A stretch of DNA of 64,000 bases from an uncultured Solibacteraceae bacterium (GCA_964471115.1 CAYYFE010000015.1:13818-77817), one strand, 5' to 3'. Shown: positions 3 through 63,137, numbered from the stretch's first letter. Notes: generated by a model not told the origin, from the letters alone. Program-made: numbers and translations.

Positions 3-1286
3 GCGTTCGCCGTCCGGTATCGCGCCTTCGGCTGGCACACCATCGTGATCGACGGCCACGACATCGCGGCCATCCGCGCGGCGCTGGCGGAAGCCCGTGG
101 CATGTCGGGCCGGCCGACGATGATCGTGGCGAAGACGCTGAAGGGGAAGGGCTGTTCAATCTTCGAGGACAAGGACAACTGGCACGGCAAACCCCTCAAG
201 AAGGGCGCCGAGGCCGACGCCGCCGTGGCCGAACTGCAGGCGCAGATGATTCCGACGTCCGACCCGGCGCCCGTGATTCGCAAGCCCGCCTCGCGTCGAT
301 CGGAAGGGCCGCTGCCGGACTTCGTCGCGGCCATGCCCGCGCCCGCCTACAAGGCCGGCGATCTGGTGGCCACGCGGGAAGCCTACGGCACGGCGCTGGC
401 CGCGCTGGGCGGCCTCGACGCTCGCATCGTCGCGCTGGATGCCGACGTGAAGAACTCCACCTTCAGCGAACGTTTCGAGAAGGTGTACCCCGAGCGGTTT
501 TATCAGACATTCATTGCCGAGCAGGCGATGATTGGCGTCTCGATGGGCCTGGCCAGCCGCGGCGCAATCGCGTTCCCGTCGTCGTTTGCGTGTTTCCTCG
601 AGCGCGGCGCCGACTTCATCCGCATGGCCGGCATCTCGATGCTCAACGTGAAGTTGTGCGGCTCACACGCCGGCATTTCCATCGGTGAAGACGGCCCGTC
701 GCAGATGGCGCTGGAAGACCTGGCCATGGCGCGCGCCGTGCCGAACTGCACCGTGTTGTATCCGTCGGATGCCGTTTCGGCCGAGCGCCTCGTGGCGGCG
801 GCCGCGGCCACCCATGGCCCGGTGTACATCCGCAGCTCGCGTCCCAAGACCCCGGTGTTGTACAGCGTGTCCGAGACGTTCCCGGTGGGGGGCTCGAAGG
901 TGCTTCGCCAGAGCGCGAAGGACGTGGCCACGGTCATCGGCGCGGGTGTCACGTTGCACGAAGCGCTCAAGGCGCACGACCTGCTGGCCAAGGACGGCAT
1001 CGCGATTCGCGTCATCGACGCGTACTCGGTGCAGCCCATCGATCGCGCCGGGCTCATCGCCGCAGGCAAGGCCACCGGCGGCCGGCTCATCGTCGTGGAA
1101 GATCACTACGCGCAGGGCGGCCTGGGCGACGCCGTGTCGGAAGCCGTCTGGGACCAGGGCTTCACCGTGCAGCGCCTGGCCGTCCGCGAGATCCCGCGCT
1201 CCGGCGGGCCCGAAGAACTGCTCGATCGCTACGGCATCTCCGCGTCCGCGATCGCGGCGCAGGTGGTGGCAAGGAGCGGCGAGTAG
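3..1286 (+). CDS. tkt: transketolase, C-terminal part (5' end lies upstream of the window)
   Basis: Frame 3 is open from base 3 (AFAVRYRAFGWHTIVIDGHD...), so the track start at 45 is internal. Transketolase pyrimidine-binding and C-terminal domain sequence is present (FIAEQAMIGVSMGLA, CGSHAGISIGEDGPSQMALEDLAMARA). Confidence 0.9.
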   Translation, partial: AFAVRYRAFGWHTIVIDGHDIAAIRAALAEARGMSGRPTMIVAKTLKGKGCSIFEDKDNWHGKPLKKGAEADAAVAELQAQMIPTSDPAPVIRKPASRRSEGPLPDFVAAMPAPAYKAGDLVATREAYGTALAALGGLDARIVALDADVKNSTFSERFEKVYPERFYQTFIAEQAMIGVSMGLASRGAIAFPSSFACFLERGADFIRMAGISMLNVKLCGSHAGISIGEDGPSQMALEDLAMARAVPNCTVLYPSDAVSAERLVAAAAATHGPVYIRSSRPKTPVLYSVSETFPVGGSKVLRQSAKDVATVIGAGVTLHEALKAHDLLAKDGIAIRVIDAYSVQPIDRAGLIAAGKATGGRLIVVEDHYAQGGLGDAVSEAVWDQGFTVQRLAVREIPRSGGPEELLDRYGISASAIAAQVVARSGE

Positions 1287-1307
1287 CGGCAAGTGGCGGC
1301 AAGTAGC
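1268..1307 (+). repeat. tandem decamer array, 4 units (GGCRAGKRGC)
   Basis: Read directly: ggcaaggagc ggcgagtagc ggcaagtggc ggcaagtagc. It spans the tkt stop codon and the tkt/ggt spacer. Confidence 0.85.
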
Positions 1308-1361
1308 GCGGCCGGATCTGCCGGCCGCGATCGAACGCCAGTGCTCTTGTATCATCCCCGG

Positions 1362-4319
1362 ATGTTCCGAACGACCCGTGTCACCCGGGCGGCCGTCGTC
1401 CTGTCGGCCGTCTCCGCTTTCATCGTCACTGCGTTTGCCGCGCAAACGCCGGTCTCGCTGACGGGCATGCGCGATCCCGCGTTCGCCCCGGATGGCCGGC
1501 GGGTGGCCGTGTCCTGGTTCGAACAGTTATGGACGATGACGCCGGACGGGCGCGATCAGAAGCGCGTCGTCAGCGGCGGCGGCACATGGGTGAGTGAACG
1601 CGATCCTGCGTGGTCACCCGATGGCCGGCAGATCGCGTTTGCCGCGGACACGAACGGCGCGTTTGATGTGTACGTCGTGCCCTCCGGCGGCGGCACACCG
1701 CGCAAGGTGACGAGCCTGGCCGGCGACGAACGATGGCCGTCATGGACACGCGACGGACGGCTGTTGTTCTCGCACCGTCCGCCGGCCGGCGACTGGTCGT
1801 TGCATCTGGTGAGCGCCGACGGCAGCGGCGAACCGGCACGACTGACGACCGGCGACCACGCCGAGTGGTTCGGCCGCGTGTCGCCGGATGGCCGTCGCGT
1901 CGTGTATCTGTCGAACGCCGATCCCGACGGCGCTGACACGGCTGATGTGTTCGTGCGCGCGCTTGACGCAGCGGAGGCGGCACCGGTGCGCCTGACCCGC
2001 GGCGGCGGCCCGGAGCGCTGGCCCGCGTGGGCGCCCGACAGCGCGCGCGTCTCGTTTGCGGCCGCGCGCCAGGGTGTGGCCACAGGCGTGTGGGTCGTGG
2101 AGGCCGCGGCGCCGGCACCATCAGCCGCGCCTGGACGCGCGGGCGGTCCCGCGGGCCGGGGTGGTGGTGGCGCGGCGCAGCCGCTCGCGCAACTGGCATC
2201 GCGGCATGCGGGCCTCTCCGCGTGGTCACCGGACGGCGAGACGCTGCTCGTCGCCACCGAACCGGCACCGTCGACGCAGTACAACGGGAATCCGGTGCGC
2301 AACGATGACGATGCGGCGGCGGTGTTTGTCGCGGCCGAAGACCTGCAGGTGTGGCGCGTACCCGCGCCGCGCGCCATTGACGCCAACGCGCGCGCGATCG
2401 CCGCGCCGCCGCCGGGCCGCAGTCAGTGGGTGACGCAGTTCGATCGCACGTGGCAGACGCTCAAGTCGCTGTATTACCGGGAGGGGCCGTCGGCGGCGGC
2501 GTGGGACGCGTTGCGCGAGAAACACCGGCCGGCCGCGCTGGCCGCGACGTCGGCGAGCGACGTGGAAGATGTCATCGATGTGATGCTGGCCGAGCAGCCG
2601 CTGATGAAGCCGGCGGTCGAGAAGACGACCGGCGTGATTTCGTCGGGCCACCCGCTGGCGTCGGCCGCCGGCGCGCGAATCCTCGACATGGGCGGCAACA
2701 TCGTGGATGCGATCGTCGCCACGTCGTTTGCGCTCGGTGTCGTCGAGCCCGATGCGTCGGGCATCGGCGGTGACGGGCAGGCCATCCTTTTCCTGAAGGG
2801 GATGAGCGAGCCGGTCATCATCGAATACAAGGACATGACGCCCGCGCGGGCGACGTTCGACAACCCGAAGATCTTCGGCCCGAACGGACAGCGCACGGCG
2901 GGTGATGGACCGACGGTCGTGAACATTCCCGGTGTCGTCGCCGGGCTGGACCTGCTCTTCCAGAAGTACGGCAGCAAGAAGGTGACCTGGGAGCAGGTGC
3001 TGGCGCCCGCGATTGAACTGGCGGAGAACGGGTACATCCTCGACGAAGCGCTGCCGACGACCATCGCAATCGGCCGCGACCGGTTCGCCAAGTACCCGGA
3101 GGCCGCGAAGATCTATCTGCCTGGCGGGAAGGTGCCCAGACCCGGCGATCGGTTCATCAACAAGGACTATGCCGAAACGCTGAAGGTGCTGGCGAAGGAA
3201 GGCGGCCAGTCGTTCTACCGCGGCAGCATCGCGCGCCGGATTGCCGACGACATGGCAGCCAACGGCGGCATCATCTCGCTGGAGGATCTCGCGCAGTACC
3301 GCGCGATGGAGCGCAAGCCGTTGTCAGGCACCTTCCGCGGCCATCTGGTGTATTCGGTGGCGCCGCCTGTCTCGACCGGTCTCACGCTCATCGAGACCCT
3401 GCAGATTCTCGACAACTACACACCGAAGCCAGGCGCCACGGTGTTCAACGACCCCGAGTACCTGCATTACGCGATCGAAGCCTGGCGTGTGCGTGATGGC
3501 GGCGCGCAGATTGCGGATCCCGAGCGCTGGCCGATCAATCTCGGCAATCACCTCGAGCGCAATCACGCGCTCGATCGCTTCAAGCTCATCAATCCGTCGA
3601 AGGCCTGGGTCGCGCCGCAGGCCGCCGGCCGTGGCCGCGGCGCCGGCCCGCTGGACCCTGGGACCCTGGACCCTGGGACCCTGGACCCTGGACCCTCGGA
3701 CCCTGGACCCATTGAGATCCTTACAGGCACCACCTCCTTCGCCGGCGCGGACACCGACGGCAACATGATCGCCGTCACGCAGACGTTGTCCACCTGGGGC
3801 GGCAACTTCTACGTGTCGAAGGGGCTCGGCTTCCTCTACAACGATCACTTCCGCGGCGGACGCGGCACCGGGTACGGGTCGATGCTGCCGCTGCAGCGGC
3901 ATTCGTCGGTCAGTGTGCCGACGCTGCTGTTTGCGCCCAGCGACGTGGACCCCGGCCGGTACGGCATTCCCGGGTTCACGCCGCGGCTGGCCGTGGGCGC
4001 CGCGGGCAACGCGTGGATTCCCGCGTCGGTCTACAACATCATCCTCAACGTCGTCGACGGCGGGCTCGACGCGCAACGCGCCATCGAGGGGCCGCGCATG
4101 CTCATCGGCAACGGCCCCGGCGGCACGTCGCGTGTGCAGCTCGAGGATCGCATCCCCCGGGCGCTGCTCGAGAAACTGGAAGCCATGGGCCACACGTTCG
4201 CCAAGACCGGCCGGAAGGGCGAGGTGGTGCAGGGCTACGCGGCCGTCGCGCTGATCAATGCGTCGAAAGGAACGGTCGAGGGCGGATCCGAGCCTCGACG
4301 TACCCATGGCGCGCGTTGA
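1362..4319 (+). CDS. ggt: secreted TolB-like (PD40/WD40-like) beta-propeller fused to gamma-glutamyltranspeptidase
   Basis: Start re-picked at MFRTTRVTRAAVVLSAVSAFIVTAFAAQ (signal-peptide-like). The N-terminal third has repeated WSPDG/SPDG propeller motifs (AWSPDGRQIAFAAD, PSWTRDGRLLFS, VSPDGRRVVYLS, AWAPDSARVSFAA, AWSPDGETLLVA). The rest is GGT (SSGHPLASAAGARILDMGGNIVDA, SGIGGDGQAILF, putative nucleophile in LTGTTSFAGADTDGNMIAVTQTLSTWGG). Confidence 0.85.
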   Translation: MFRTTRVTRAAVVLSAVSAFIVTAFAAQTPVSLTGMRDPAFAPDGRRVAVSWFEQLWTMTPDGRDQKRVVSGGGTWVSERDPAWSPDGRQIAFAADTNGAFDVYVVPSGGGTPRKVTSLAGDERWPSWTRDGRLLFSHRPPAGDWSLHLVSADGSGEPARLTTGDHAEWFGRVSPDGRRVVYLSNADPDGADTADVFVRALDAAEAAPVRLTRGGGPERWPAWAPDSARVSFAAARQGVATGVWVVEAAAPAPSAAPGRAGGPAGRGGGGAAQPLAQLASRHAGLSAWSPDGETLLVATEPAPSTQYNGNPVRNDDDAAAVFVAAEDLQVWRVPAPRAIDANARAIAAPPPGRSQWVTQFDRTWQTLKSLYYREGPSAAAWDALREKHRPAALAATSASDVEDVIDVMLAEQPLMKPAVEKTTGVISSGHPLASAAGARILDMGGNIVDAIVATSFALGVVEPDASGIGGDGQAILFLKGMSEPVIIEYKDMTPARATFDNPKIFGPNGQRTAGDGPTVVNIPGVVAGLDLLFQKYGSKKVTWEQVLAPAIELAENGYILDEALPTTIAIGRDRFAKYPEAAKIYLPGGKVPRPGDRFINKDYAETLKVLAKEGGQSFYRGSIARRIADDMAANGGIISLEDLAQYRAMERKPLSGTFRGHLVYSVAPPVSTGLTLIETLQILDNYTPKPGATVFNDPEYLHYAIEAWRVRDGGAQIADPERWPINLGNHLERNHALDRFKLINPSKAWVAPQAAGRGRGAGPLDPGTLDPGTLDPGPSDPGPIEILTGTTSFAGADTDGNMIAVTQTLSTWGGNFYVSKGLGFLYNDHFRGGRGTGYGSMLPLQRHSSVSVPTLLFAPSDVDPGRYGIPGFTPRLAVGAAGNAWIPASVYNIILNVVDGGLDAQRAIEGPRMLIGNGPGGTSRVQLEDRIPRALLEKLEAMGHTFAKTGRKGEVVQGYAAVALINASKGTVEGGSEPRRTHGAR
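3653..3710 (+). repeat. tandem 7/8-mer array (GGACCCT / GGGACCCT), about 8 units, in frame inside ggt
   Basis: Read directly: ggaccctgggaccctggaccctgggaccctggaccctggaccctcggaccctggaccc. It is translated as GPLDPGTLDPGTLDPGPSDPGP. Confidence 0.9.
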
Positions 4320-7509: not shown

Positions 7510-7515
7510 GGTGTA

Positions 7516-7571
7516 AAGGATAAGGGATAAGGGATAAGGGATCAGGGATCAGGGACAAGGGACCAGGGACC
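7516..7571 (+). repeat. tandem heptamer array, 8 units (AGGGAYN)
   Basis: aaggata agggata agggata agggatc agggatc agggaca agggacc agggacc, starting 7 nt upstream of the nadE start codon. Confidence 0.9.
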
Positions 7572-7587
7572 ATTTGGAACCGCTCCC

Positions 7588-7647
7588 AATGATCCCTGGT
7601 CCATTGTCCATGTCGCCCTTCCAATGATCCCTTATCCTTGATCCTTT
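7588..7647 (+). repeat. degenerate heptamer array in inverted orientation to 7516-7571
   Basis: caatgat ccctggt ccattgt ccatgtc gcccttc caatgat cccttat ccttgat. Its reverse complement has the GGAYNNN type of the left array. The inner units are near-complementary (ggaccagggacc vs gatccctggtcc). It overlaps the last codons of the upstream membrane-protein gene. Confidence 0.75.
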
Positions 7648-8591
7648 CGTAAATTCCGAATCCCTTCCGCCGCCGGGGAGTCGGGCCAGAGGGGCAGCGG
7701 AGCCGCGGTGTAGGTCGCGTGCGCGAGTTCGCCCTGGAAGAACACGATGAGCGACGCCGTCCACCAGAGGCTCGCCGCGACGCGCAGGACGATGTAGAGC
7801 ATGACGACGGTGACGTAGTAGTCGAGGCCCTCATCGCTGACCGGCGCGGCGCCGAACCAGAGGCGAATGACGACCACGGACGGCAACGCGCTCAGCGCGT
7901 ACAGGCCGGCCGTGCGCAGCGGGCGCCGGCGCATGAACCGAAGCCCCGCCATGAGGCCGCCGAGCGCGCTGTGGCGGTCCTCCACCACCATGCGAATGCG
8001 CGCGAAGTCGCCCGCCATCGCGACCAGGCCCAGCGCCGCCGCGAACATGAGATGCATCGACACTTGTACGACGAGCAGGTCGGTGCGGTCGGTCAGGCCC
8101 TGCGTCCGGTTCGCCATGACCGTGCCCAGCCACCAGGGCTGGGCATAGATAAGCAGCACCCACCAGGCCGGAGCCATCAGGACCGCCAGTCGAAGGAATC
8201 GCCAGAAATGGACGCCGCAGGCGGAGAAAAACGCCGCGGTGTACGTGGCGCGTCCTCGCGCGAAGCGATCGATGATGCCGCCGGAGAGAAACAACGACAG
8301 CGCCAGGGCGGCCAGTGCGGCGCCCATCGCCGCCGGCGCGGCGGGCGGCGTGCGATGGCCCAGCGCCAGCGCCCAGCCACCGTGCCACTGCCACATCAGG
8401 CGTTCGAGCGCGGTTCGCAGGCCGAGCCGGTCCGACATCGGCCCGAAGACGTCGCCGGCAAACGGCGCCAGCACGACCACCGCCAGCACCGCCAGTGCCA
8501 CACCCATCACCGGCGCCTGCCACACCCGCCGCCCGCCCTCGAGGAACGCGCCGAGGATGGTGGCTCGCTGCGTGGTGGGTGCACCGGTCAT
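7632..8591 (-). CDS. polytopic membrane protein, unknown function
   Basis: 319-aa ORF with several long hydrophobic segments (VMGVALAVLAVVVLAPFAG, LMFAAALGLVAMAG, VTVVMLYIVLRVAASLWWTASLIVFF). I recognise no family. Confidence 0.55.
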   Translation of the reverse strand: MTGAPTTQRATILGAFLEGGRRVWQAPVMGVALAVLAVVVLAPFAGDVFGPMSDRLGLRTALERLMWQWHGGWALALGHRTPPAAPAAMGAALAALALSLFLSGGIIDRFARGRATYTAAFFSACGVHFWRFLRLAVLMAPAWWVLLIYAQPWWLGTVMANRTQGLTDRTDLLVVQVSMHLMFAAALGLVAMAGDFARIRMVVEDRHSALGGLMAGLRFMRRRPLRTAGLYALSALPSVVVIRLWFGAAPVSDEGLDYYVTVVMLYIVLRVAASLWWTASLIVFFQGELAHATYTAAPLPLWPDSPAAEGIRNLRKDQG

Positions 8592-8615
8592 GACCGTGGC
8601 ATCCTATCTCAACCC

Positions 8616-13882: not shown

Positions 13883-13950
13883 GTCGGCAGTATAGCCCCC
13901 GCGTGATATATTTCCGAGGTTCGCCCGGCGGCACAGAGGCCCACAGTAGA

Positions 13951-14561: not shown

Positions 14562-14566
14562 CGGGC

Positions 14567-15493: not shown

Positions 15494-15532
15494 TTCAACC
15501 GTCGTCACTCACTCAGGAGAAGGAACGTAGTC

Positions 15533-15802: not shown

Positions 15803-15824
15803 CCGCCGGGAGTAAGGAGCCGAC

Positions 15825-16322: not shown

Positions 16323-16416
16323 CATCAGGGCACAGGGCTCAGGTTGCAGGGCACAGGGGCGGACAACAGCACCTTCCGTCCCTGTGGCTTGTGACCTGTC
16401 GCCTGTAGCCTGCAGG
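16323..16416 (+). repeat. two heptamer arrays in inverted orientation (NNNCAGG x5, about 20 nt spacer, CCTGNNN x5)
   Basis: Left arm: catcagg gcacagg gctcagg ttgcagg gcacagg. Right arm: cctgtgg cttgtga cctgtcg cctgtag cctgcag. Perfect complementary core CACAGGG (16352-16358) / CCCTGTG (16380-16386). It fills the atpF-eamA spacer. Confidence 0.8.
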
Positions 16417-16421
16417 CGCGT

Positions 16422-17348: not shown

Positions 17349-17359
17349 TCAGAGCGAGT

Positions 17360-17430: not shown

Positions 17431-17458
17431 CCTTCATGGCCCTTCATGTCCTTCATGG
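17431..17458 (+). repeat. three tandem copies of CCTTCATG(G), period 9-10 nt
   Basis: ccttcatgg c ccttcatg t ccttcatgg. Each copy carries an ATG (17436, 17446, 17455). The array overlaps the annotated desaturase start. Confidence 0.8.
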
Positions 17459-25504: not shown

Positions 25505-27082
25505 ATGACCGCCACCACCTTCAGTCTCGCCCACCTGCTGGACCAGACCGCGCGACTCACCCCGTCACGCGAAGCCGTCGTGATGGGGCAGACGCGCCTG
25601 ACCTGGGCGCAGCTGGACGCCATGGTGAGTCAGGTCGCCAACGGCCTCCGCAGCCTGGGGCTGCGCCCCGGGGATCACATCGCGTTGTCGTGCCCCAACG
25701 TGCCGTATTTCCCGATGGCGTATTACGGCATCCTCCGGATGGGCGGCGTGGTGGTGCCCCTCAACGTGTTGCTCAAGCCGCGCGAGATTGCGTACCACCT
25801 CAAGGACGCGCAGGCCAGGGCGCTGCTGGTGTTTGAAGGCACGGCGGAACTGCCGATGGCGACGATGGCGCGGGCCGCCTGTGACGAGGCCGGCCTGTCG
25901 ATGCCGGTGATCGTGATGACCGCCAATCCCGCGGCGCCCAGTCCGGTCGACCGCGCGCTGTCGTTTGGCCAGCTCGTCCACGGACAAGCCCCGCGGTGCG
26001 CCACCCATCCGGCCGCACCCGGCGACACGGCGGTCATTCTCTACACCTCCGGGACGACCGGACAGCCCAAGGGCGCCGAACTGACGCACTTCAACATGGT
26101 GACCAACGCGCTGGTGTCGCGCGACATGTTGTCGCCGCTGGTCGACAGCCCGATCGCCGGCACCACCCGCCACCTGATCACGCTGCCGTTGTTCCACTCG
26201 ACCGGGCAGACCGCGCAGATGAACGCCAGCGTGGCTGGCGCCTCCACGATGGTACTGATGCCTCGGTTCGAGGCGGCGGGCGTGCTCAAGACGATGGTCG
26301 ACGAGCGGATTACGTGCTGGGTGGGCGTGCCCACGATGTACTGGGCGCTGCTTCAGCATGCGCGCCAGCACGGCGTCGACACGTCGGCCATCGCGGCGCG
26401 GCTGCGCGTCTGTGCGTCGGGCGGCGCGCCGATGCCGGTCGCCGTGTTGCAGGATTTCGAGCAGACCTTCGGGGTGCGCGTGCTCGAGGGGTACGGCCTG
26501 TCCGAGACGGCGCCGGTCGCCTGTTTCAACCAGGTGTTCCTGCCGTCCAAACCCGGCACCGTCGGCTTGCCCGTCCTCGGCTGCGAGGTGCGCGTCGTCA
26601 ACGATCAGGACGAACCGCTGCCCTCCGGTGAACGCGGCGAAATCGTCATCCGCGGCCACAACGTGATGAAGGGGTACTTCAACCGCCCGGCCGACACGGC
26701 CGAGGCGCTGCGGGGCGGGTGGTTCCACACCGGCGACATCGGCGTCATCGATGCCGATGGCTTCGTGTCGATTGTCGATCGCAAGAAGGACATGGTGCTG
26801 CGCGGCGGCATGAACGTGTATCCACGCGAGATCGAGGACGTGTTGATGACGCACCCGGCGGTGTCGCTGGCGGCCGTCATCGGCGTGCCCGACGAACGCC
26901 TGGGCGAAGAAGTGAAGGCGTATGTCGTGCTCAAGCCGGGCGCGACGCTGACGCCCGAGGCACTGGTGGACTGGAGCCGCGAACAACTGGCCGCCTACAA
27001 GTACCCCCGGATCGTCGAGATTCGGGAGTCGCTGCCGGTCGGGCCCACCGGCAAGGTGTTCAAGCGGGCGTTGCGCGAGTAG
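25505..27082 (+). CDS. long-chain fatty-acid--CoA ligase (AMP-dependent synthetase)
   Basis: AMP-binding motif ILYTSGTTGQPKGAELTH, with WFHTGDIG...DRKKDMVLRGGMNVYPREIE later. Confidence 0.9.
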   Translation: MTATTFSLAHLLDQTARLTPSREAVVMGQTRLTWAQLDAMVSQVANGLRSLGLRPGDHIALSCPNVPYFPMAYYGILRMGGVVVPLNVLLKPREIAYHLKDAQARALLVFEGTAELPMATMARAACDEAGLSMPVIVMTANPAAPSPVDRALSFGQLVHGQAPRCATHPAAPGDTAVILYTSGTTGQPKGAELTHFNMVTNALVSRDMLSPLVDSPIAGTTRHLITLPLFHSTGQTAQMNASVAGASTMVLMPRFEAAGVLKTMVDERITCWVGVPTMYWALLQHARQHGVDTSAIAARLRVCASGGAPMPVAVLQDFEQTFGVRVLEGYGLSETAPVACFNQVFLPSKPGTVGLPVLGCEVRVVNDQDEPLPSGERGEIVIRGHNVMKGYFNRPADTAEALRGGWFHTGDIGVIDADGFVSIVDRKKDMVLRGGMNVYPREIEDVLMTHPAVSLAAVIGVPDERLGEEVKAYVVLKPGATLTPEALVDWSREQLAAYKYPRIVEIRESLPVGPTGKVFKRALRE

Positions 27083-27153
27083 CGGCGAGTGGCGGCGAGT
27101 GGCGGCGAGTGGCGGTGAGTAGCGGTGAGTAGCGGCGAGTAGCGGGGAGTGGA
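27075..27153 (+). repeat. tandem decamer array, about 8 units (GCGAGTRGCG)
   Basis: gcgagtagcg gcgagtggcg gcgagtggcg gcgagtggcg gtgagtagcg gtgagtagcg gcgagtagcg gggagtgg. It spans the ligase stop codon and the whole spacer up to the HD gene. Confidence 0.9.
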
Positions 27154-33784: not shown

Positions 33785-33855
33785 GCAACTATGTTGCACC
33801 GTGCAACTATATTGCCACCGACGGCCTGGTGCGTTAATGTTGCTCAATGCAACAT
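33785..33855. promoter_or_regulatory. three GCAAC/GTTGC palindromes in an AT-rich divergent promoter region
   Basis: GCAAC-tat-GTTGC (33785-33797), GCAAC-tata-TTGC (33803-33815), atGTTGC-tcaat-GCAACat (33837-33855, overlapping the MBL ATG). Confidence 0.45.
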
Positions 33856-36771: not shown

Positions 36772-37803
36772 TCAGGAGAGGTCGTAGGTGTAGCAGCCGG
36801 GCAGGACCAGCGCCCGGGTGACGCCGGGCACGCGGCTGAACGACAGACTCTCGGGCGCCTGGTTGCCCGTGCCGTCAAACGTGACGACCCGCCGCTTGTC
36901 GCCGTACTGGTCGTAGACGTACGTGAAGGGCGCGGCCAGGCTGACCCAGAGGTGGCCGTTCGGATCGAGCGCCGCCGTGCGAATCATCGGCGGGATCACC
37001 GGGTACGTCCCGTCCCCCGTCTTGCGCGTGGGCCACGTCGTCGGCAACGTCTGCAGGTACGGATCGAGATGGGATCCCTCGATGTGGCGCTCGAAGACCA
37101 GTTGCCCCGCGGCGTCGTACTTCTGGAACTTCGGCACGCCGGTCTGAAAGACAAACGTCACGCTGCCGTCACGACCGCGCAACGCCAGGCCCACGTTGAG
37201 CGCCATGTGCACGTTGCGGTCGTGTTCGTGGCCCGTCGCTCGCAGCCGCCCGATCTGCCGGATCGGATTGCCGTTGAGGTCCAGCTCGGTGATCAGCGCG
37301 CCGTTGTCCGGCTCGTTGAGCAGGAATCCCGATCCGGTGAACTGCAGCGCGCCCACGCCGTTGAGGATGACCGCGCCCATGATGAGCCGGGGCGCCACCA
37401 CGCCCGGCCGCAGAAACGCGCGAATCTGCGCGCCGGCCGCGGTGAACACCTGGATTCGCTCCTGACGGAAGGGCGCATCCGAAATCGCATACGCGCCATC
37501 GTCGGCCAGGCTGAGGGCGCCCGGCTGCAGCGTCTCGCCCTTTTCGAGCCCGGCCTGCACCAGCCGCGTGAGACGTGTCCCGGTGCGGTCCACCGCGTAC
37601 AACGTGTGCGCGCGACGGTCGAGCAGCAGGTACCGCCCGGAGGCGTCCTGCACGAATCCGATGGGATGAATCAGCGAATCACAGACCTGCTGCGACAGGC
37701 CGCCGGTGGGGCGCAGGACTTCGACGGGCAGCTGCGATGCCGTGAGTGTGGTCGACAGGAAAAGTGCGGCGCCCCACAGACCATGGCGCCCTACGCAAGT
37801 CAC
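36772..37803 (-). CDS. secreted hypothetical protein, possibly beta-propeller (NHL-like)
   Basis: The ORF is followed 3 nt downstream by the DUF885 gene. Repetitive beta-rich sequence. Start uncertain: GTG 37803 lies at the edge of the decamer array. Confidence 0.45.
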   Translation of the reverse strand: MTCVGRHGLWGAALFLSTTLTASQLPVEVLRPTGGLSQQVCDSLIHPIGFVQDASGRYLLLDRRAHTLYAVDRTGTRLTRLVQAGLEKGETLQPGALSLADDGAYAISDAPFRQERIQVFTAAGAQIRAFLRPGVVAPRLIMGAVILNGVGALQFTGSGFLLNEPDNGALITELDLNGNPIRQIGRLRATGHEHDRNVHMALNVGLALRGRDGSVTFVFQTGVPKFQKYDAAGQLVFERHIEGSHLDPYLQTLPTTWPTRKTGDGTYPVIPPMIRTAALDPNGHLWVSLAAPFTYVYDQYGDKRRVVTFDGTGNQAPESLSFSRVPGVTRALVLPGCYTYDLS

Positions 37804-37877
37804 TCGCCGCCACCCGCCGCTACTCGCCGCCACTTGCCGCCACTTGCCGCCACTCGCCGCCACTCGCCGCTACTCGC
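37801..37877 (-). repeat. tandem decamer array, about 7.7 units, same unit as 27075-27153 but on the minus strand
   Basis: Plus strand reads cactcgccgc cacccgccgc tactcgccgc cacttgccgc cacttgccgc cactcgccgc cactcgccgc tactcgc. It fills the spacer between two minus-strand genes. Confidence 0.9.
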
Positions 37878-42582: not shown

Positions 42583-42585
42583 GGG

Positions 42586-44318: not shown

Positions 44319-45301
44319 GCCGGCCCCTGAACCCTGGACCCTCGGACCCTGGACCCTGCGTACGCTTCAAACGTCATTCCCTCGGCGCCCAGTTCCTTCG
44401 TGGCGTACGTCAGGAAGGCGCCCAGCCGTTCGTAGAAGGCGTCCAGCTCGGCCTCGGTGCGGTTGTACGGACTGCCGCCGACGATGGCCTCCGAGGAATG
44501 GAAGAGCAGGTTGAGAATCGGGACGCCGGCGTCGACCAGCTGCCGTCCCAGCGCGCACATGTCCTGCGTCGAGCTGTACGACGGGCGCAGCCAGCGGACC
44601 TGCGCGACCCCCGACAGACGCAGCAGGCGCTTGGTGGTGTAGTTGAACGGCGCGCGCGCGTAGGCGTGCGCCAGCCACGCCGGGACGCGCCGGTTGAGTG
44701 CGGCCGAAATCGGCAGCTCCAGCACCTGGCTCGAGCCCGGCCGCGTCGCGTTGTCGTAGGCGAGGAAGTACGGCGTCAACGGGGCCTCGACGAAGTCGGG
44801 CCCGCCCTTGTGCGCCTCGTAGAACAGGGGAGCCACGCTCGAGTCGACCAGGTAGCCGGCGCGTTCGAGTGACGAAACGTGGGAGGCCGAAAATCCGAAG
44901 CGGCCCGAACGATACGACACCGGCCGCACGCCGACCGCGGCGGTGATCGCGTCGGTCAACGACGCCAGCTGGGCGTCGAATTGATCGAGGGGCAGCTGCA
45001 GGGCGTACGGGTGCCGGCGGATGTCCGCCTCGGTGCACGGCGGCGTTTCCCACGCGTGATGATGCGCGCCGATTTCACAGTCGCCCGCCTCGTGCAGCCG
45101 GCGCAGCACCTCGGCCGAGCGGGGATCGGTGGCGACCGGATGGGTGATGACGTACGTCGGCCGGACGCCGTGACGCCGGAAGAACTCGTGCAGCCGATCG
45201 AGCGCGTAGATGTTCTCGAAGCGCTGGTGCAGGCGCGCCTGGGCGTCCCACTGGTTGTCGCCTTCGGTGTCGATTGCGACCAGCAGGGCGGGCCCGGTCA
45301 T
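44315..45301 (-). CDS. polysaccharide deacetylase-like protein (WalW-type)
   Basis: LLVAIDTEGDNQWD...VRPTYVITHPVA...EIGAHHHAWETPP resembles the divalent-metal deacetylase fold. ATGA overlaps at both ends. Confidence 0.7.
   Translation of the reverse strand: MTGPALLVAIDTEGDNQWDAQARLHQRFENIYALDRLHEFFRRHGVRPTYVITHPVATDPRSAEVLRRLHEAGDCEIGAHHHAWETPPCTEADIRRHPYALQLPLDQFDAQLASLTDAITAAVGVRPVSYRSGRFGFSASHVSSLERAGYLVDSSVAPLFYEAHKGGPDFVEAPLTPYFLAYDNATRPGSSQVLELPISAALNRRVPAWLAHAYARAPFNYTTKRLLRLSGVAQVRWLRPSYSSTQDMCALGRQLVDAGVPILNLLFHSSEAIVGGSPYNRTEAELDAFYERLGAFLTYATKELGAEGMTFEAYAGSRVRGSRVQGPA
44329..44357 (+). repeat. tandem 7/8-mer array (GGACCCT type), 4 units
   Basis: gaaccct ggaccct cggaccct ggaccct. 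It encodes the last residues (GSRVRGSRVQGPA) of the minus-strand deacetylase gene and sits just upstream of the GT4 start. Confidence 0.85.
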
Positions 45302-46341: not shown

Positions 46342-46343
46342 GC

Positions 46344-47204: not shown

Positions 47205-48990
47205 TGAGTGCAGCCCGGTCGCGGCCCGGCGTCTCCTGGACGTCGAACTCCATCACGAGTCGTCGCTGCGGGTAGTGCGCGAGCACGTCGAGGATGACGT
47301 CACCCTCGTAGCCTGGCTCGGGCCGTCCGTCGGCTTCCGTATAGGAGAGTATATAGCGCGCATCGTCGCGCGAGAGCCGGTCCGCGTAGTTGCCGAACCC
47401 CCGGCCCACGAAGACCGGGCGGATGCGATTCTCGAGCGCGAGGCCGTTGGCCAGCTTGCCGTGCACGAGGGTGCCGTCGGGCAACACTGCCCCCAGCGCC
47501 CGCGACGCGTCGACGTTGAGGTACGTGCGGGACGCGGCCCACCGGCCGAACAGCGTCAGGTCGGTCGCGACGGTCGCCACCACGACGAAGGCCAGCGCCA
47601 CGGGCGAGGGACGCCAGCCGGCCAGCCAGTCCGCGTAGCGCGCCCGGTACCACCAGGCCGCCAGCCCGGCCGCGACCGCAACCGCCGCCGAGACCCGGAC
47701 GGTCTGCTTCAACTCGCCCGCCAGGACGTCGTCGAGCCAGACCAGGCGCAGCAGACTGCCGGCGGCCAGATACGCCAGGGGCACCGCCGCGACGGCCACC
47801 ACCACGCCCCCCCATCGATCCATCGATCCATCGATCCATCGATCCATTGATCCATCGATCCATCGATCCATGGTTGTCATGCCGGCCAGTGCGATGAGCG
47901 CCGGCACGAACATCACGTAGCGACGTTCGTTGCCCGCGTCATGCACGATCAGTTCGAGCAGCCCGATGGCCAGCCAGAGCACGGCCAGCCGGGCCGCGGG
48001 CGGCGCGGCGGGCCAGCGTCGCACCACCGCGAGTGTCGTCACGGCCGCGACCAGCAGCACCAGCCACATGCGCGAGAACACGCCATGCACGACGGGCAGC
48101 CAGCTGGCGCGCTGGACGAAGTCGGCAAGGCCGTAGCTCGGCTTGCGCGTGACCGTCATCTCCCAGTTGTAGAACTGGAATTCGGTCCAGTACGGCACGA
48201 CGAACATCGCCAGCACGACGGCGGTGGCGAGTACGAGACCCGCGAGGGTGGCGAGGTGGCGAGATGGCGAGGTGGCGAGGTGGCCGGATGGCGAGGCGGC
48301 GAGGTGGCGGGATGAGCACCACCATGCGGTGGCCATCTCCAGTACGAGCGCGGCGATGAAAAACGCCGCGGCGGCCTTCGTGAAAAACGCGGCCACCGCC
48401 GCCGCGCCGGCGATGACGCCGAGCCAGGGGCGGCGCGCGCTGCCGGCGTACGCGGCCCAGCTCACCGTCATCAACGCCGTCATGGTGGACTCCATCAGCG
48501 CCGCGCGGTTCCACATGACGAACGTGAAACTGGTGGCCAGCAGCACGCCGCCCAGCAGCGCGGCCCGGCGCCCAGCCACGGCCAGCAGGCCGGCCATCAG
48601 CGCCGCCACCGCCACGACACCGGAGATCGCCGGCACCAGTCGCGCCTGCCACGTGCCGACGCCGAAGGCCTCAAACGACGCCCACTCGAGCGCGGTGAAC
48701 ACCGGCGCGATGAACACGGGGTTCCAGGCGTCGGTCCGCCACTCGCCCCACAACGCGGCGTTGCGCGCATTGTGCGTCCACGCACCTTCGTCGTGCCAGA
48801 CGATCCCGGTGTGCCCCACCGGAGGATCCGCCGTCAGCCAGACGCCGCGCAGGGCGATGGCGAGCAGCAGCAGGCCGGCGATGGCCGCCAGTGTCCGCAC
48901 GGACGAGGCTCCGCACTCCGCACTGCGCTCCGCGCACTCCGCACTTCGCACTCCGCACTGCGCACTGCGCACTCCGCACTGCGCACTCAT
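47158..48990 (-). CDS. GT-C fold, ArnT/PMT_2-like membrane glycosyltransferase carrying three in-frame repeat arrays
   Basis: Start fixed by an ATGA overlap with the upstream gene (48987-48990). First-loop acidic motif IVWHDEGAWTHNARNAALWGEW. At least 10 TM segments. Soluble C-terminal domain. Confidence 0.75.
   Translation of the reverse strand: MSAQCGVRSAQCGVRSAECAERSAECGASSVRTLAAIAGLLLLAIALRGVWLTADPPVGHTGIVWHDEGAWTHNARNAALWGEWRTDAWNPVFIAPVFTALEWASFEAFGVGTWQARLVPAISGVVAVAALMAGLLAVAGRRAALLGGVLLATSFTFVMWNRAALMESTMTALMTVSWAAYAGSARRPWLGVIAGAAAVAAFFTKAAAAFFIAALVLEMATAWWCSSRHLAASPSGHLATSPSRHLATLAGLVLATAVVLAMFVVPYWTEFQFYNWEMTVTRKPSYGLADFVQRASWLPVVHGVFSRMWLVLLVAAVTTLAVVRRWPAAPPAARLAVLWLAIGLLELIVHDAGNERRYVMFVPALIALAGMTTMDRWIDGSMDRWIDGSMDRWGGVVVAVAAVPLAYLAAGSLLRLVWLDDVLAGELKQTVRVSAAVAVAAGLAAWWYRARYADWLAGWRPSPVALAFVVVATVATDLTLFGRWAASRTYLNVDASRALGAVLPDGTLVHGKLANGLALENRIRPVFVGRGFGNYADRLSRDDARYILSYTEADGRPEPGYEGDVILDVLAHYPQRRLVMEFDVQETPGRDRAALIDKFPDGPDPRARDK
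47812..47872 (+). repeat. tandem octamer array (CCATCGAT), about 7.5 units, in frame inside the GT-C gene
   Basis: ccatcgat x3, ccattgat, ccatcgat x2, ccatgg. Translated on the minus strand as MDRWIDGSMDRWIDGSMDRW. Contains six GATC and five ATCGAT sites. Confidence 0.9.
48247..48311 (+). repeat. tandem octamer array (GGTGGCGA type), about 8 units, in frame inside the GT-C gene
   Basis: ggtggcga ggtggcga gatggcga ggtggcga ggtggccg gatggcga ggcggcga ggtggcgg. Translated on the minus strand as SRHLAASPSGHLATSPSRHLAT. Confidence 0.9.
48911..48987 (+). repeat. tandem heptamer array (SSGCACT), 11 units, forming the first about 26 codons of the GT-C gene
   Basis: ccgcact ccgcact gcgctcc gcgcact ccgcact tcgcact ccgcact gcgcact gcgcact ccgcact gcgcact. 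Minus-strand translation MSAQCGVRSAQCGVRSAECAERSAECG. Confidence 0.9.
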
Positions 48991-50588: not shown

Positions 50589-50620
50589 CGGGGAATTATA
50601 CGTTCCGGTATAGTGCTGGG

Positions 50621-53909: not shown

Positions 53910-53931
53910 GCCAGCAGACCCCGCCGGGGTG

Positions 53932-56567: not shown

Positions 56568-56572
56568 GTGGG

Positions 56573-59712: not shown

Positions 59713-59721
59713 GGCGAGGTG

Positions 59722-60459: not shown

Positions 60460-62310
60460 ATGCCCGCCACCGCCACGTCACGAGCCGTGTACGGGGCGGT
60501 GACCGCGGTGCTGGCGGCCCTGGCCGTGATGGCGACCCGGCCCGCGCAGGCCGGCTTCGACTTTGGCACCCTGCTGCCGCCCGGGTTGGTCGACGGAGTC
60601 TACGACGTCGAGCGCGGCCCGGACGGGCTGACCTACGCGTGGACCCGGCCGGTGTTCACGGTGCGGCTCGACGCGATTGACCGCGCCGGCCCCTGGGGCT
60701 TGAGGCTCAGGATGCGTGCCGCGAGGCCGGACGGATCCGAACCCGAACTGACCACGGCCGTCGACGGCATTGTCGTCGATCGCAGCCGCCTGTCCGCCGA
60801 GTTCGAGACGCGCCGCGTGCCGTTGCCGCCGCGCGCCAGCCCCGGCCCGACGCACATTACGTTCACGGTGACACCGGCCTATGTCCCAGCCGGTGATCCG
60901 CGACCGCTGGGCGCGATGGTGGACTGGCTGGCCGTCGAGCGTCCGCCGGGCGTGTGGTGGGCGGCGTCGTTTCGCGGCTGGGTGGTGCTCGTGCCCGTCG
61001 TGCTCCTCGCCGCGCTGACGGCGCTGGTGTTCGGCGCGCCCGGCATCCTCGGTGGCGCGGCGCTGTCGGGGCTGGCGGCGTGGAGCCTCACCCGTGGACT
61101 GGGGCCGCTGGTCGACTGGCCCGTGGTCAGTCTGACCGCCGCGGCAGTTGCGGCCGGGGGAGCCGTTGCGCTCGTCAGCGCCGGCCGCCGGCTGGGTGCA
61201 ATGCTGGGCGTCGTGGCCGCCGTGGCCGTGATGCTCAAGTTGCTGATCCTCGCGCATCCGGACACGCCCATCGGCGATGCGATGTTCCATGCCCATCGAT
61301 TCCAGACGGTGCTGGCCGGCAATCTGCTCTTCACTTCGATCACGCCAGGCAACTACGACTTTCCGTACGCCCCCGGGTTGTACGTCCTGTCGACGCCGCT
61401 GGCGTTCCTGACCGAGACGTCACTCGACAAGGTCTGGCTCCTGCGCATCGTCACCACGGTGGCCGAGGCGGTGGCCGCCGGCGCGGTCGGCTGGTGGGTG
61501 GGCCGCGGCGGGCAGACGGGACTGGCGGTGACGACCGCCGCGGTGTGCCATCTGCTGCCGTTGTCGATGACCGTGCTCGTCGTGGGGAACCTCACCAACG
61601 CCTTCGCGCAGGCGGCGGCGGCTCTGGCGCTGGCCGTGATGGCCCGGAGCACCGGCTCGCGCGGGTCCACCGTGGCGGCGGTGGCGCTTGTGTTGACGGC
61701 CCTGCTCTCACACACCGGGACCGCCGTGTTGTTGACGACCCAGCTGCTGGCGATTGGGGCGTGGCTCGCGTGGAAGGGCGCAGACGGCAGCGGCCCCAGC
61801 GGCCGCTGGTGGATGGGCGTGGCCACGGTCTGCGCCTTGATCGCGACGGTGGCGTACTACGCGCACTTCTGGCCGGTGTACGAGACCGCGTTGACGCGCG
61901 CGGCGGCGGAAACAGGCGCGGCCGCCTCCACCGCGGGCTTTCGCACGCCGGGGCAGCGGCTGCGCGACATTCCGGTGCTGCTGTCGCTGTACTACAGCAC
62001 CGCCGGTGTGGTGCTGGGCATGGCCGGTGTGTGGTGGTGGCGCCGCTCCGGCCTCGCGAGCAGCGACCGTGTGGTCGTGGCGGCCGGCGGCCTGGTGCTC
62101 GCGGGGTTTCTCCTCGTCGGCGTGATCACGCCGATCGACTTCCGGCACTACCTGGCGGCCATTCCCCTGGTGGCGATTGTCATCGCGATCGGGACACACG
62201 CGCTGTGGTCGACGGGCCGCCTGGGGCAGGTGGCCGTGGCGTGTGTGTGGTCGGTTCTGGTGTGGTCAGCGCTGCGCAACGCGCTTCAGGGAATCGGGGC
62301 GACGGACTAA
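60460..62310 (+). CDS. polytopic membrane protein with N-terminal extracytoplasmic domain (possible GT-C-like transferase or polymerase)
   Basis: Start re-picked at MPATATSRAVYGAVTAVLAALAVMATRPAQA. About 170-aa beta-rich domain, then at least 11 TM segments. Loop HPDTPIGDAMFHAHRF. I recognise no family. Confidence 0.55.
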   Translation: MPATATSRAVYGAVTAVLAALAVMATRPAQAGFDFGTLLPPGLVDGVYDVERGPDGLTYAWTRPVFTVRLDAIDRAGPWGLRLRMRAARPDGSEPELTTAVDGIVVDRSRLSAEFETRRVPLPPRASPGPTHITFTVTPAYVPAGDPRPLGAMVDWLAVERPPGVWWAASFRGWVVLVPVVLLAALTALVFGAPGILGGAALSGLAAWSLTRGLGPLVDWPVVSLTAAAVAAGGAVALVSAGRRLGAMLGVVAAVAVMLKLLILAHPDTPIGDAMFHAHRFQTVLAGNLLFTSITPGNYDFPYAPGLYVLSTPLAFLTETSLDKVWLLRIVTTVAEAVAAGAVGWWVGRGGQTGLAVTTAAVCHLLPLSMTVLVVGNLTNAFAQAAAALALAVMARSTGSRGSTVAAVALVLTALLSHTGTAVLLTTQLLAIGAWLAWKGADGSGPSGRWWMGVATVCALIATVAYYAHFWPVYETALTRAAAETGAAASTAGFRTPGQRLRDIPVLLSLYYSTAGVVLGMAGVWWWRRSGLASSDRVVVAAGGLVLAGFLLVGVITPIDFRHYLAAIPLVAIVIAIGTHALWSTGRLGQVAVACVWSVLVWSALRNALQGIGATD

Positions 62311-63035
62311 CGCTGGTTGCCGCCGCCACCGCCGCCGCCGCCGCGACCTGGCCGCGGACCCGTGCCGCCCGGCCCTGCGGGAGGCCCACCGGCGCGTCCG
62401 GCGTCCGGCCCGGGAATGACCACGCCCGGGATCGTCGACGTCACCGTGCCGCCGGGGCCTGAGCGCAGATTCGGATTCGTCGAACCCGATCCCCCCGGGG
62501 TCGACGGCGGCAACTCGCCAATCTGACGCGCCGGCGGAATTTCGGAATCCGGCGACGGCGCGGGAGGCGGCACCAGCTGCGGCGGCTGAGGCGGTGGTGC
62601 CTGCTGTGGCGCCTGTGGAACCGGCGTCGAGGCGGCCGGCCCGCTGGCCACCGGCACGGTGCGCGAGGCCAGGATGAACACCGCGGCAATGGTGGAGGAC
62701 GAGGCGTCGGGGGCGATTCGCGGAGCCGCGCCGTAACCGGGCACGTCCCGCAGCAGGCTGCGCAACACCGCGGCCTCAGGCTCGTCGCGGAACTCCAGCA
62801 CGGGCACCGGCGCGCCGCTCAGCTTGTCCGCGTTCACGATCCGGGATCCGCCCTTGCGGCCCCATTCCTGCAGCACTTCCCGCACCGTGACGTTTTCGGC
62901 AACGATCGTCACCTTGCCGTCCTGGAAGCTGACTTCAAGCTTGCGCGGGCCCTGTGCCAGGGTGGGCCACGAGCCCGCCAGCACGATCGCAGCACTCACG
63001 CCGACGACGAATCCGGATCGGGTCAGGGACATCAC
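62307..63035 (-). CDS. secreted protein with STN-like N-terminal domain and Pro/Gly-rich tail
   Basis: Signal peptide ...VSAAIVLAGSWPTLAQ. VSFQDGKVTIVAENVTVREVLQEW resembles secretin/TonB short N-terminal domains. C-terminal half is low complexity, ending in GGGGGGGG encoded by a (GCC)n run. Confidence 0.5.
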   Translation of the reverse strand: MMSLTRSGFVVGVSAAIVLAGSWPTLAQGPRKLEVSFQDGKVTIVAENVTVREVLQEWGRKGGSRIVNADKLSGAPVPVLEFRDEPEAAVLRSLLRDVPGYGAAPRIAPDASSSTIAAVFILASRTVPVASGPAASTPVPQAPQQAPPPQPPQLVPPPAPSPDSEIPPARQIGELPPSTPGGSGSTNPNLRSGPGGTVTSTIPGVVIPGPDAGRAGGPPAGPGGTGPRPGRGGGGGGGGNQR

Positions 63036-63081
63036 AGGCCTCCAGAGGGGACGATTTCAGTATACGCCCCGTCGGCTTGCT

Positions 63082-63137
63082 CCGCACTGCGCACTGCGCA
63101 CTCCGCACTGGGCACTGCGCACTGGGCACTCCGCACT
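63082..63137 (+). repeat. tandem heptamer array (SSGCACT), 8 units
   Basis: ccgcact gcgcact gcgcact ccgcact gggcact gcgcact gggcact ccgcact. It lies in the spacer between two minus-strand genes, 15 nt past the radical SAM stop codon. Confidence 0.9.

Follow-up and report, generated by a model that had tools for sequence, protein, structure and literature searches.

Introduction

Long tandem repeats with units of 5-11 nucleotides (nt) were described by Mrázek (2007) as typical of the large, high-GC genomes of free-living bacteria. As summarised in later papers (PMC4679880, PMC4692102), heptamers are the commonest of these repeats, coding regions contain mainly units whose length is a multiple of three, and the richest genomes are those of Burkholderia, cyanobacteria, actinobacteria and Xanthomonas; polymerase slippage was proposed as their origin. 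The present paper deals with a set of tandem arrays with units of 7-10 nt in a stretch of 64,000 nt from an uncultured Solibacteraceae bacterium (GCA_964471115.1, CAYYFE010000015.1:13818-77817), which is referred to as the window throughout. By every structural criterion tested, the arrays fall into a class already known, the heptamer-rich long simple-sequence repeats, of which they are a new, dense, multi-family example. They are probably driven by slippage and survive where they are tolerated.

Two systems of this class, each with a single prominent heptamer, have been characterised in more detail. Arrays of GGGAATC in Xanthomonas and of GGGGA(C/T)T in Nostoc were described by Rehm et al. 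2015 (PMC4692102). For X. campestris, 186 heptamer loci were identified, 89-93% of which are intergenic, with 7-11% in or at open reading frames (ORFs) (PMC4692102). The arrays of both genera are located at a mean distance of 28 nt from the upstream ORF, often overlapping its stop codon; aligned genes flank 65-70% of them, and convergent and divergent junctions account for 16% and 7-8%, respectively; 70-75 inverted pairs were found, length and sequence vary among close species, and no function was identified (PMC4692102). The second system comprises the TAACTGA direct repeats of marine Beggiatoaceae, cyanobacteria and Bacteroidetes (MacGregor 2015, PMC4679880). Here, one unit is present at about 170 loci, mostly in 2-6 copies and directly upstream of start codons; the unit carries a stop of its own, which is why the repeats overlap the upstream stop codon, and within ORFs they are found only at the termini and peripheries of proteins. 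Tandem repeats have also been reported for the archaeal Borg extrachromosomal elements, with hardly any of them in the genome of the host (Schoelmerich et al. 2023, PMC9879509).

Tandem Arrays and Unit Families

Tandem Repeats Finder (TRF) was run over the window, and a repeat was taken as an array at a period of 6-11, at least 3 copies and a score of at least 50; 30 dinucleotide-preserving shuffles of the window served as the chance control. Ten loci were found to carry strong arrays with units of 7, 8 or 10 nt, 4.1-11.4 copies and 81-96% matches. Their scores range from 52 to 119, compared to best scores of 36-48 in the shuffles, none of which (0 of 30) reached 50. The density amounts to about 1.6 arrays per 10 kb. 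In a TRF comparison with GC-matched controls, 8 arrays of 7-8 nt and 3 decamer arrays were obtained for the 64 kb, whereas Ralstonia (100 kb) and Rhodococcus (50 kb) had none and Cupriavidus (50 kb) had 3. The 7-10-nt arrays are real and non-random. An earlier annotation made without database searches (the sequence-only reading) had counted 14 arrays at 12 loci. Ten of these loci stand above the shuffles; two others, 16326-16358 (score 38) and 17431-17458 (score 42), are within the range of shuffle scores, and the arrays given as 7588 and 16378 are degenerate inverted partners of neighbouring arrays, not clean tandem arrays.

The recurrence of units at distant sites, which had been pointed out in the same reading, was borne out. 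The decamer GCGAGTRGCG is present at three loci (1268, 27075 and 37801), GGACCCT at two (3651 and 44325; a related block, AGGGACC, occupies 7537-7572) and GCACTSC likewise at two (48909 and 63083). Solitary copies of these three recurrent units, as possible seeds, were searched for elsewhere in the window, and none was found. The idea of one dispersed family had to be given up, as the 64 kb contain several unrelated unit families, namely the decamer GCGAGTRGCG, GGACCCT, AGTGCGS, ATGGATCG and CACCTCGC. Within an array, unit variants are common to adjacent copies. The arrays are not CRISPR arrays, which consist of 23-50-nt repeats separated by unique spacers of similar length; the units of 7-10 nt abut directly, without spacers. 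Nor are they like repetitive extragenic palindromes, and on both points the earlier annotation was correct.

Array Variation in Related Genomes

The window is part of a Vicinamibacterales (Acidobacteriota) chromosome, in line with the Acidobacteria-like host proposed before: homologues of its GT39/PMT_2 membrane glycosyltransferase, called GT39 in the following, are labelled Vicinamibacterales or Acidobacteriota, and the best of them is 73% identical. The comparison set consists of 80 related loci with 1.43 Mb, including metagenome-assembled genomes (MAGs) of several independent projects, and of 1.49 Mb when the window is included. In these 1.49 Mb, the TRF period histogram comprised 7 nt (37 arrays), 8 nt (16), 9 nt (12), 12 nt (10) and 6 nt (7); non-triplet units dominate, and the pattern extends across the lineage. 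The two closest relatives of the window, L001 and L002, were deposited as 'Acidimicrobiia bacterium' MAGs; these contigs are probably mis-binned or mislabelled, because both the GT39 protein and the neighbouring genes place them with Vicinamibacterales.

The proteins of all loci were clustered, and the same junction was followed across species. Where an operon junction lacks an array, the genes are 0-5 nt apart or overlap by ATGA, whereas an array at the same junction goes with a spacer of 50-350 nt. At the richest junctions, arrays are present in 10-20% of the species, with units that are mostly different; examples are 9 of 60 loci at one junction and 10 of 57 at another, the latter including the window's array at 44325. 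For the junction ahead of GT39, a median spacer of -4 nt was determined over 42 loci, versus 86 nt in the window, where it is filled by the array at 48909.

Array length was also found to differ between close strains. Among GT39 proteins that are at least 90% identical, two of three internal indels are located within repeats, one of 15 amino acids (aa) in loop 2 and one of 48 aa (4 x 12 aa) in an array at the C-terminus; the third, a gap of 2 aa, affects a conserved region. In otherwise near-identical metagenome contigs, decamer copy numbers of 3 versus 4 and of 3 versus 5 were found. All observed GT39 length variants are in frame, and frameshifted ('OFF') GT39 alleles were found in none of the 80 related loci, where all genes are intact save one that is cut by a contig end. 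Many arrays of the relatives occur as inverted pairs 20-60 nt apart, and in 8 of 11 adjacent array pairs both members have the same unit.

Some arrays of the relatives are much longer than those of the window (L014 11688-11876, L068 12607-12798 and L027 15205-15322). They include a 10-nt unit in 20.7 copies, which encodes C-terminal HGNTATRTHTET repeats of a GT39 protein and of which 48 aa are lost in one strain, and an 8-nt unit in 25.6 copies and a 7-nt unit in 16.9 copies, both at gene junctions.

Placement Relative to Genes

Because of the GC content of the window (69%), three approaches to gene mapping were used: third-position GC, a codon log-odds model for which 282 long ORFs from the lineage served as the training set, and Pfam. 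The arrays at 3651, 47812 and 48242 were located in frame within ORFs, the one at 44325 in the final 14 codons of an ORF and the one at 48909 right behind a start codon; the others lie between co-directional genes. About 40% of the window's arrays are in ORFs or at ORF ends. The junction arrays fill most of their spacers, with the exception of the short array at 1268. Two gene calls near arrays were checked separately. For the arrays around 7514, a divergent junction had been indicated by the third-position GC map; this was ruled out by codon-position composition, translation and the codon log-odds caller, which identified 7632..8591(-) as a real membrane-protein gene and the junction as co-directional. 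The start of the TonB receptor gene was placed near 8616. Likewise, 62307..63035(-) is a real secreted-protein gene.

It had been claimed that arrays occur only in frame within ORFs or at junctions of genes transcribed in the same direction. After careful gene calling this holds for the window, where 7 of 7 junction arrays are co-directional (p about 0.09-0.17). It does not extend to the lineage as a rule. When the junction arrays of the window and the 80 related loci were assigned on the basis of the codon log-odds gene calls, 27 were co-directional, 6 convergent and 2 divergent, and all junctions together were 886 co-directional, 125 convergent and 130 divergent (78%, 11% and 11%). The split of the arrays follows the abundance of the junctions, and co-directional junctions are not enriched in arrays (p = 0.62); exclusively co-directional placement carries no statistical weight, because about 78% of the junctions of the lineage are co-directional. 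Only divergent spacers are depleted, with 25% of the intergenic bases versus 6% of the arrays (p = 0.004). Most co-directional arrays begin at most about 20 nt from the upstream stop codon or overlap it, and many reach to within a few nt of the next start. The real rule of placement is therefore 'downstream of a gene end', not 'co-directional only'.

Arrays at Gene Junctions and ORF Ends

The three decamer arrays share a relation to the gene in front of them: each has a repeat unit, in sense orientation, whose TAG serves as the stop codon of the upstream gene. The array at 1268..1308(+) consists of 4.1 copies of GGCRAGTRGC (TRF score 61; sequence and frame reading, Pfam) and is located upstream of a gene for a PD40-gamma-glutamyltranspeptidase (GGT) fusion; a transketolase-like E1-beta gene (..1286) ends with the TAG of the array's second unit (1284-1286). 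At 27075..27150(+), 7.6 copies of GCGAGTRGCG (score 110; Pfam) reach the start of an HD_3 gene at 27149 or 27158, and the TAG of the first unit (27080-27082) ends a gene for an AMP-binding enzyme. The third array, 37801..37877(-), with 7.7 copies of GCGAGTRGCG in sense orientation (score 119; Pfam), is in phase from the TAG stop (37877-37879) of an E1 dehydrogenase gene and takes up the spacer as far as the next gene.

GCGAGTRGCG was considered as a lineage-specific stop-codon element and rejected, as a metagenome scan identified the decamer in about 13 unrelated contig groups with a GC content of 43-73%, in mixed contexts and orientations; the unit is not specific to the lineage. Some of the apparent 'upstream ORFs' at the metagenome decamer arrays are antisense artefacts. 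In a set of metagenome contigs with a GC content of 55-62% (L085, L086, L093, L096, L097 and L098), a conserved stretch of about 60 nt, AAAGGCCAACGCTCAGAGCCCAGTGATTGCGCCACT..., adjoins a (GCGAGTGGCG)3-5 array in most cases, and some of these contigs have upstream repeats of GTGACAAAAGGTGCAAG. This is an unrelated, uncharacterised element of what may be marine bacteria.

Two heptamer arrays were assigned to gene ends on the minus strand. The array at 44325..44358(-), with 4.7 copies of CAGGGTC in sense orientation (the reverse complement of GGACCCT; score 52), makes up the last 14 codons of a polysaccharide deacetylase ORF and lies 6 nt ahead of an ATGA stop/start overlap with a GT4 gene. At 63083..63139(-), 8.1 copies of GCAGTGC/GGAGTGC in sense orientation (score 86), of the same unit family as the array at 48909, are located 13 nt downstream of the stop of a radical-SAM/SPASM gene and upstream of the secreted-protein gene. 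A further repeat, 17431..17458(+), is a 9-mer, CCTTCATGG, in 3 copies at the start of a fatty-acid desaturase gene. With a TRF score of 42 versus a shuffle maximum of 48 and no RNA structure (z +0.28), it is indistinguishable from chance.

Inverted Pairs and Hairpins

At two loci of the window, an array and an inverted partner form a hairpin. The heptamer array at 7514..7572(-), with 8 copies running from TAAGGGA through CAGGGAT to AGGGACC on the plus strand (TRF score 70-77), forms the 3' arm, with the start codon of the NAD synthase gene (7509) following 4 nt downstream of its end. The 5' arm is a degenerate inverted copy at 7586..7650(-), recognised by the fold, with a TRF score of only 30 at 7625-7646, and it overlaps the stop codon (7632-7634) of the membrane-protein gene 7632..8591(-). 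For the complete hairpin (7510-7655), a folding energy of -77.1 kcal/mol was calculated, with z -8.1 against shuffles. At the end of the atpBEF block, the weak heptamer array at 16326..16358(+), with 4.7 copies of CAGGGCA (score 38), starts 4 nt after the atpF stop and forms the 5' arm; its inverted partner, CCCTGTG.. CTTGTGACCTG at 16374..16405(+), was found by the fold as the 3' arm downstream of atpF and upstream of an EamA transporter gene. Here, the hairpin (16320-16405) has -48.7 kcal/mol and z -5.05, and by this hairpin the locus, weak by score, is rescued.

For single, unpaired arrays, fold z values of +0.7 to -2.3 were obtained, with no or marginal gain over shuffles (27075, z -0.07). 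An intrinsic (Rho-independent) terminator combines a GC-rich hairpin with a T-run; in a scan of 7300-17600, this signature was found at neither hairpin. At least four G3 tracts with short loops were read from the sequence of four arrays, namely 7514, 3651 (minus strand), 44325 (sense) and 16326. In two relatives (L006 and L008), an inverted pair (GGGTCCA)n...(GGACCCT)n is located within the GT39 ORF, in loop 1. This suggests that the hairpin architecture is made by the mechanism that generates the arrays and was not selected for termination.

Arrays inside Conserved Enzymes

The heptamer array at 3651..3710(+), with 8 copies of GGACCCT (TRF score 93-100), is in frame in the PD40/GGT gene, and the Pfam G_glu_transpept match spans it. 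It is translated to LDPGTLDPGTLDPGPSDPGP (LDPGT...), immediately ahead of the catalytic-Thr motif TGTTS and beyond the part that can be aligned with solved GGT large subunits, which ends just upstream of the array. The gene itself (1341-4319) codes for a GGT of about 1000 aa with an N-terminal PD40 (TolB-like) beta-propeller and a Tricorn C1-like segment, which is an unusual GGT architecture.

Three arrays are located in one GT39 gene, all on the minus strand. The octamer array at 47812..47871(-), with 7.5 copies of the sense unit ATGGATCG (score 113), is in frame by translation and homologue alignment and encodes MDRWIDGSMDRWIDGSMDRW in inter-helix loop 2. Similarly, 8-9 copies of the sense unit CACCTCGC at 48242..48314(-) (score 92-116; translation and alignment) encode SRHLAASPSGHLATSPSRHLAT in loop 1. 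In an AlphaFold model with a mean pLDDT (predicted local distance difference test score) of 73.6, the arrays lie in inter-helix loops of locally lowest confidence, with a block pLDDT of 52 for loop 2 and of 60 for loop 1, which is modelled as coil. The third array, 48909..48988(-), contains 11.4 copies of the heptamer AGTGCGS in sense orientation (score 104-116; pLDDT 44-55), directly behind an ATG that overlaps the TGA of the upstream gene. It forms an N-terminal tail on the GT39 protein or else a spacer ahead of a downstream GTG start. The ORF is one gene, because homologues of 555-600 aa cover its whole length; the three arrays are insertions at the N-terminus and in two loops.

Both loops are variable in the alignment, and other species have their own, different repeat peptides there. 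These include PTHQPTNP from (CCAACCCA)3, PISPSPHL from CATCTCCC, MEDGGWR from ATGGAGG and GPWTLDP from GGACCCT. In a DNA comparison of loop 1 among the closest relatives, related units of unequal length were identified, namely CCACCTCG, CCCACCAR, CATCTCCC and the 9-mer CCACCTCTG, a series that fits unit turnover in place. Distant GT39 homologues mostly have an ordinary loop 1.

Gene Content of the Window

The GT39 gene belongs to a large envelope-polysaccharide region (40289-50546 and 50567-60420) with many ATGA or 4-nt gene overlaps. Its predicted products are a rhomboid protein, MurJ, GT4, the deacetylase, a GNAT protein, a methyltransferase, two or three GT39-like membrane proteins, of which one gene only contains arrays, GT2, an AlgX-like SGNH protein, MBOAT, two radical-SAM enzymes and a flippase. 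Within the MBOAT gene, an imperfect (GCT)13-like trinucleotide run with 72% matches is present at 53717-53755. The window genes otherwise have housekeeping and envelope functions. Genes for a transposase, reverse transcriptase or integrase were not identified in the window by Pfam and the gene map, and Rfam and tRNA scans of it gave no matches.

An AT-centred palindrome, GCAAC-N3-5-GTTGC, is present three times at 33785-33855 (GCAACTATGTTGC, GCAACTATATTGC and GTTGCTCAATGCAAC), in the spacer that separates two divergent genes, one for a molybdopterin oxidoreductase (32534..33769 -) and one for a metallo-beta-lactamase-fold protein (33847..34953 +). The palindromes look like an operator for a dimeric regulator.

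Probable Origin and Maintenance of the Arrays

The best reading, to which we assign a probability of roughly 0.6, is that the arrays are slippage-driven repeats that survive where they are tolerated. A short duplication would arise and then be lengthened or shortened through replication slippage. Loops of 7-10 nt are beyond the range corrected by MutS-type mismatch repair. Occasional intramolecular template switching may generate an inverted second array, both arrays then forming a hairpin. With coding sequence making up about 93% of the genome, purifying selection would spare arrays only where they are harmless, that is, at or just after a stop codon, in former 0-5-nt operon spacers, at protein termini, and in loops where the total length is a multiple of three. 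Since only arrays at harmless sites would be left, most of them would be tolerated by-products and not dedicated signals; as a side effect, hairpin pairs and G-tract arrays may alter mRNA stability or translation. Slippage-driven birth, growth and turnover are suggested by the length polymorphism, and template switching as the source of inverted pairs by the pair inside a coding region. The comparison across species shows the confinement to gene ends, former zero-length spacers and permissive loops that purifying selection would produce.

Several points weigh against this reading. Within a genome, 7 of 26 pairs of distant arrays have a unit in common (27%), versus 86 of 1268 (6.8%) between genomes (p = 0.0017), and 15 identical heptamer pairs were counted versus 1.1 expected from random k-mers. 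In the window, the arrays at 27075 and 37801 are identical over the first 32 nt, and the alternating GCAGTGC/GGAGTGC pattern is common to those at 48909 and 63083. Within-genome reuse of units implies that pure local slippage is insufficient, and the recurrence at several loci of one genome would point to a copying or seeding step or to a genome-specific bias. In addition, some operon junctions and both GT39 loops gain arrays repeatedly in different species, and such repeated gain at given sites could mean selection for the array, not tolerance. Slippage in the organism of the window is deduced from related sequences, and the gene calls rest on our own codon log-odds model, of which an earlier version put one junction wrong.

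Among the alternatives, a role of the arrays as functional cis-elements was considered, with the hairpins as protectors or terminators of 3' ends, the single arrays as intercistronic spacers that uncouple translation, and the G-tract arrays as G-quadruplexes that tune the flanking genes. It is in accordance with the position of most co-directional junction arrays about 20 nt or less from a stop, often reaching close to the next start, with the two hairpins (z -8.1 and -5.05) directly after stop codons, one of them ending the atpBEF block, with the four arrays containing at least four G3 tracts, and with the depletion of divergent, promoter-only spacers (p = 0.004); for the analogous Xanthomonas repeats, G-quadruplex formation was demonstrated in vitro (PMC4692102). 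However, about 80-99% of the related species have no array at the same junction, their genes overlapping or lying 0-5 nt apart, which counts against a dedicated regulatory role, and where arrays are present at the same site, the units differ between species. Furthermore, the structure of single arrays is not beyond chance, the hairpin-plus-T-run signature is absent from 7300-17600, and inverted pairs are also present in a coding region, where a terminator would be harmful; a regulatory role was not identified by Rehm et al. either (PMC4692102). Operon punctuation, suggested as a possible role in the sequence-only reading, is not supported, on the same grounds. A general cis-element function is thus unlikely; a dedicated regulatory role of the two hairpins and the G-tract arrays is possible, and the data do not require it. 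Less probable still is that the in-frame arrays with non-triplet units are contingency loci for phase variation, at which gain or loss of a 7- or 8-nt unit shifts the frame and, within a population, turns envelope enzymes (GT39, polysaccharide deacetylase, periplasmic GGT) off and on, as under pressure from phages. In principle, a frameshift could occur because non-triplet units are located inside ORFs: units of 7-8 nt in 5-11 copies are present in envelope-related genes, three arrays are in one GT39 gene of a polysaccharide cluster, copy number differs among close strains, and the same two GT39 loops contain arrays in many species. Yet the 80 related GT39 genes are intact, apart from the one cut by a contig end, without a frameshifted allele, every length variant seen is in frame, and most arrays of the lineage are intergenic, beside ordinary metabolic genes; the results of Rehm et al. 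for Xanthomonas were equally negative (PMC4692102).

A third alternative is an active, sequence-specific spread, in which a mobile micro-element or a templated addition would seed a genome-specific unit at gene boundaries and slippage would modulate its length later. A process of this kind in Vicinamibacterales would seed genome-specific 7-10-nt units at gene boundaries and permissive loops and split operon genes that formerly overlapped. It is in accordance with the genome-specific unit vocabularies (27% versus 6.8% sharing), with the three unit families of the window, which are present at 2-3 loci each and never as single copies, with one relative (L041) that has one heptamer at three junctions within 8 kb, and with the presence of arrays at junctions that otherwise have zero-length spacers. 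In published heptamer systems, one unit is present at more than 150 loci with 'no mechanism evident' (PMC4679880). Against it stand the absence of a candidate enzyme gene (reverse transcriptase, transposase or nuclease) from the window, the absence of visible shared flanks or target-site duplications around arrays of the same unit, and the decamer arrays of about 13 unrelated organisms (GC content 43-73%) in unrelated contexts, which fit an independent origin; the counts are also small. We regard this spread as doubtful, somewhat less probable than a cis-element function. If it were true, a templated or copy-based 'microsatellite seeding' would also explain how a single heptamer spread to hundreds of loci in Xanthomonas, cyanobacteria and Beggiatoa, and the lineage would be a good place to catch seeding at work, because several young unit families coexist per genome.

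The comparative data provide a clean picture of a compact genome tolerating the birth of repeats, with spacers of 0-5 versus 50-350 nt and unit turnover at one protein loop, and they sharpen the question how one unit reaches several loci. The arrays are also of importance for annotation, as they provide stop codons, fill spacers up to start codons and add repeat peptides of 20-26 residues to conserved enzymes. For MAG assembly and strain typing, the difference in array length between close strains has to be considered.

Comparison with Known Systems

The STRR sequences of heterocystous cyanobacteria had been named in the sequence-only reading as the closest analogue. The units of STRR1-3 are CCCCAGT, TTGGTCA and CAACAGT. 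None of the STRR units is matched by the arrays described here, the host of which belongs to Vicinamibacterales. The analogy is apt in that the STRR, as cited in PMC4692102, are likewise tandem heptamers with several unit families per genome at many dispersed loci (Mazel et al. 1990), but the unit sequences and the phylum are different, and units of 8 and 10 nt are present in the window in addition. Judged from the accounts given in later papers, closer analogues are the long repeats of Mrázek 2007 and the Xanthomonas and Nostoc heptamers (PMC4692102).

With the TAACTGA repeats, the arrays have in common the location at gene boundaries, a stop codon supplied by the unit (TAG in the decamer), the peripheral position of repeats inside ORFs and the frequent lack of room for a Shine-Dalgarno sequence. 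In contrast to them, many units are present here, with more copies per array, and mainly beside stop codons. To the Borg repeats (PMC9879509), the arrays are similar in their rapid evolution, independent origin and formation of new disordered protein segments; they differ from them in their location on a bacterial chromosome and in their non-triplet units.

The likeness to the Xanthomonas and Nostoc heptamers is more extensive. Both sets of arrays are dispersed, mostly intergenic and stop-proximal, with a near-identical split among junctions and few divergent arrays (27, 6 and 2 co-directional, convergent and divergent arrays here), both include frequent inverted pairs capable of forming stem-loops (8 of 11 adjacent pairs share a unit here), both vary in copy number and sequence at the same junction, and some units of each contain G3 tracts. 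However, no single unit dominates in the present case, and about 40% of the window's arrays are in ORFs or at ORF ends, compared to 7-11%. The consensus units GGGAATC/GGGANTN and GGGGA(C/T)T were not found, the closest being GGGATAA, GGGATCA and GGGACCA at 7514-7572, and the preference for four units, the minimum for a quadruplex, was not observed, as the copy numbers of 4.1-11.4 have no mode at four.

A literature search on tandem or heptanucleotide repeats in Vicinamibacter or Acidobacteria found no description, in agreement with the sequence-only reading, to which none was known. In so far as the Mrázek class is characterised in the later papers, the arrays of the window share its head-to-tail units of 5-11 nt, its length above chance and its predominance of heptamers: the units of 7, 8 and 10 nt are uninterrupted, ten loci exceed all shuffles, and the 7-nt class is the largest. 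They differ from the class as described there in that Acidobacteriota are not among the taxa named, and in the larger share of non-triplet arrays in frame in conserved enzyme genes. The phenomenon of heptamer-rich long repeats is hereby extended to Acidobacteriota, a dominant and poorly studied phylum of soil bacteria.

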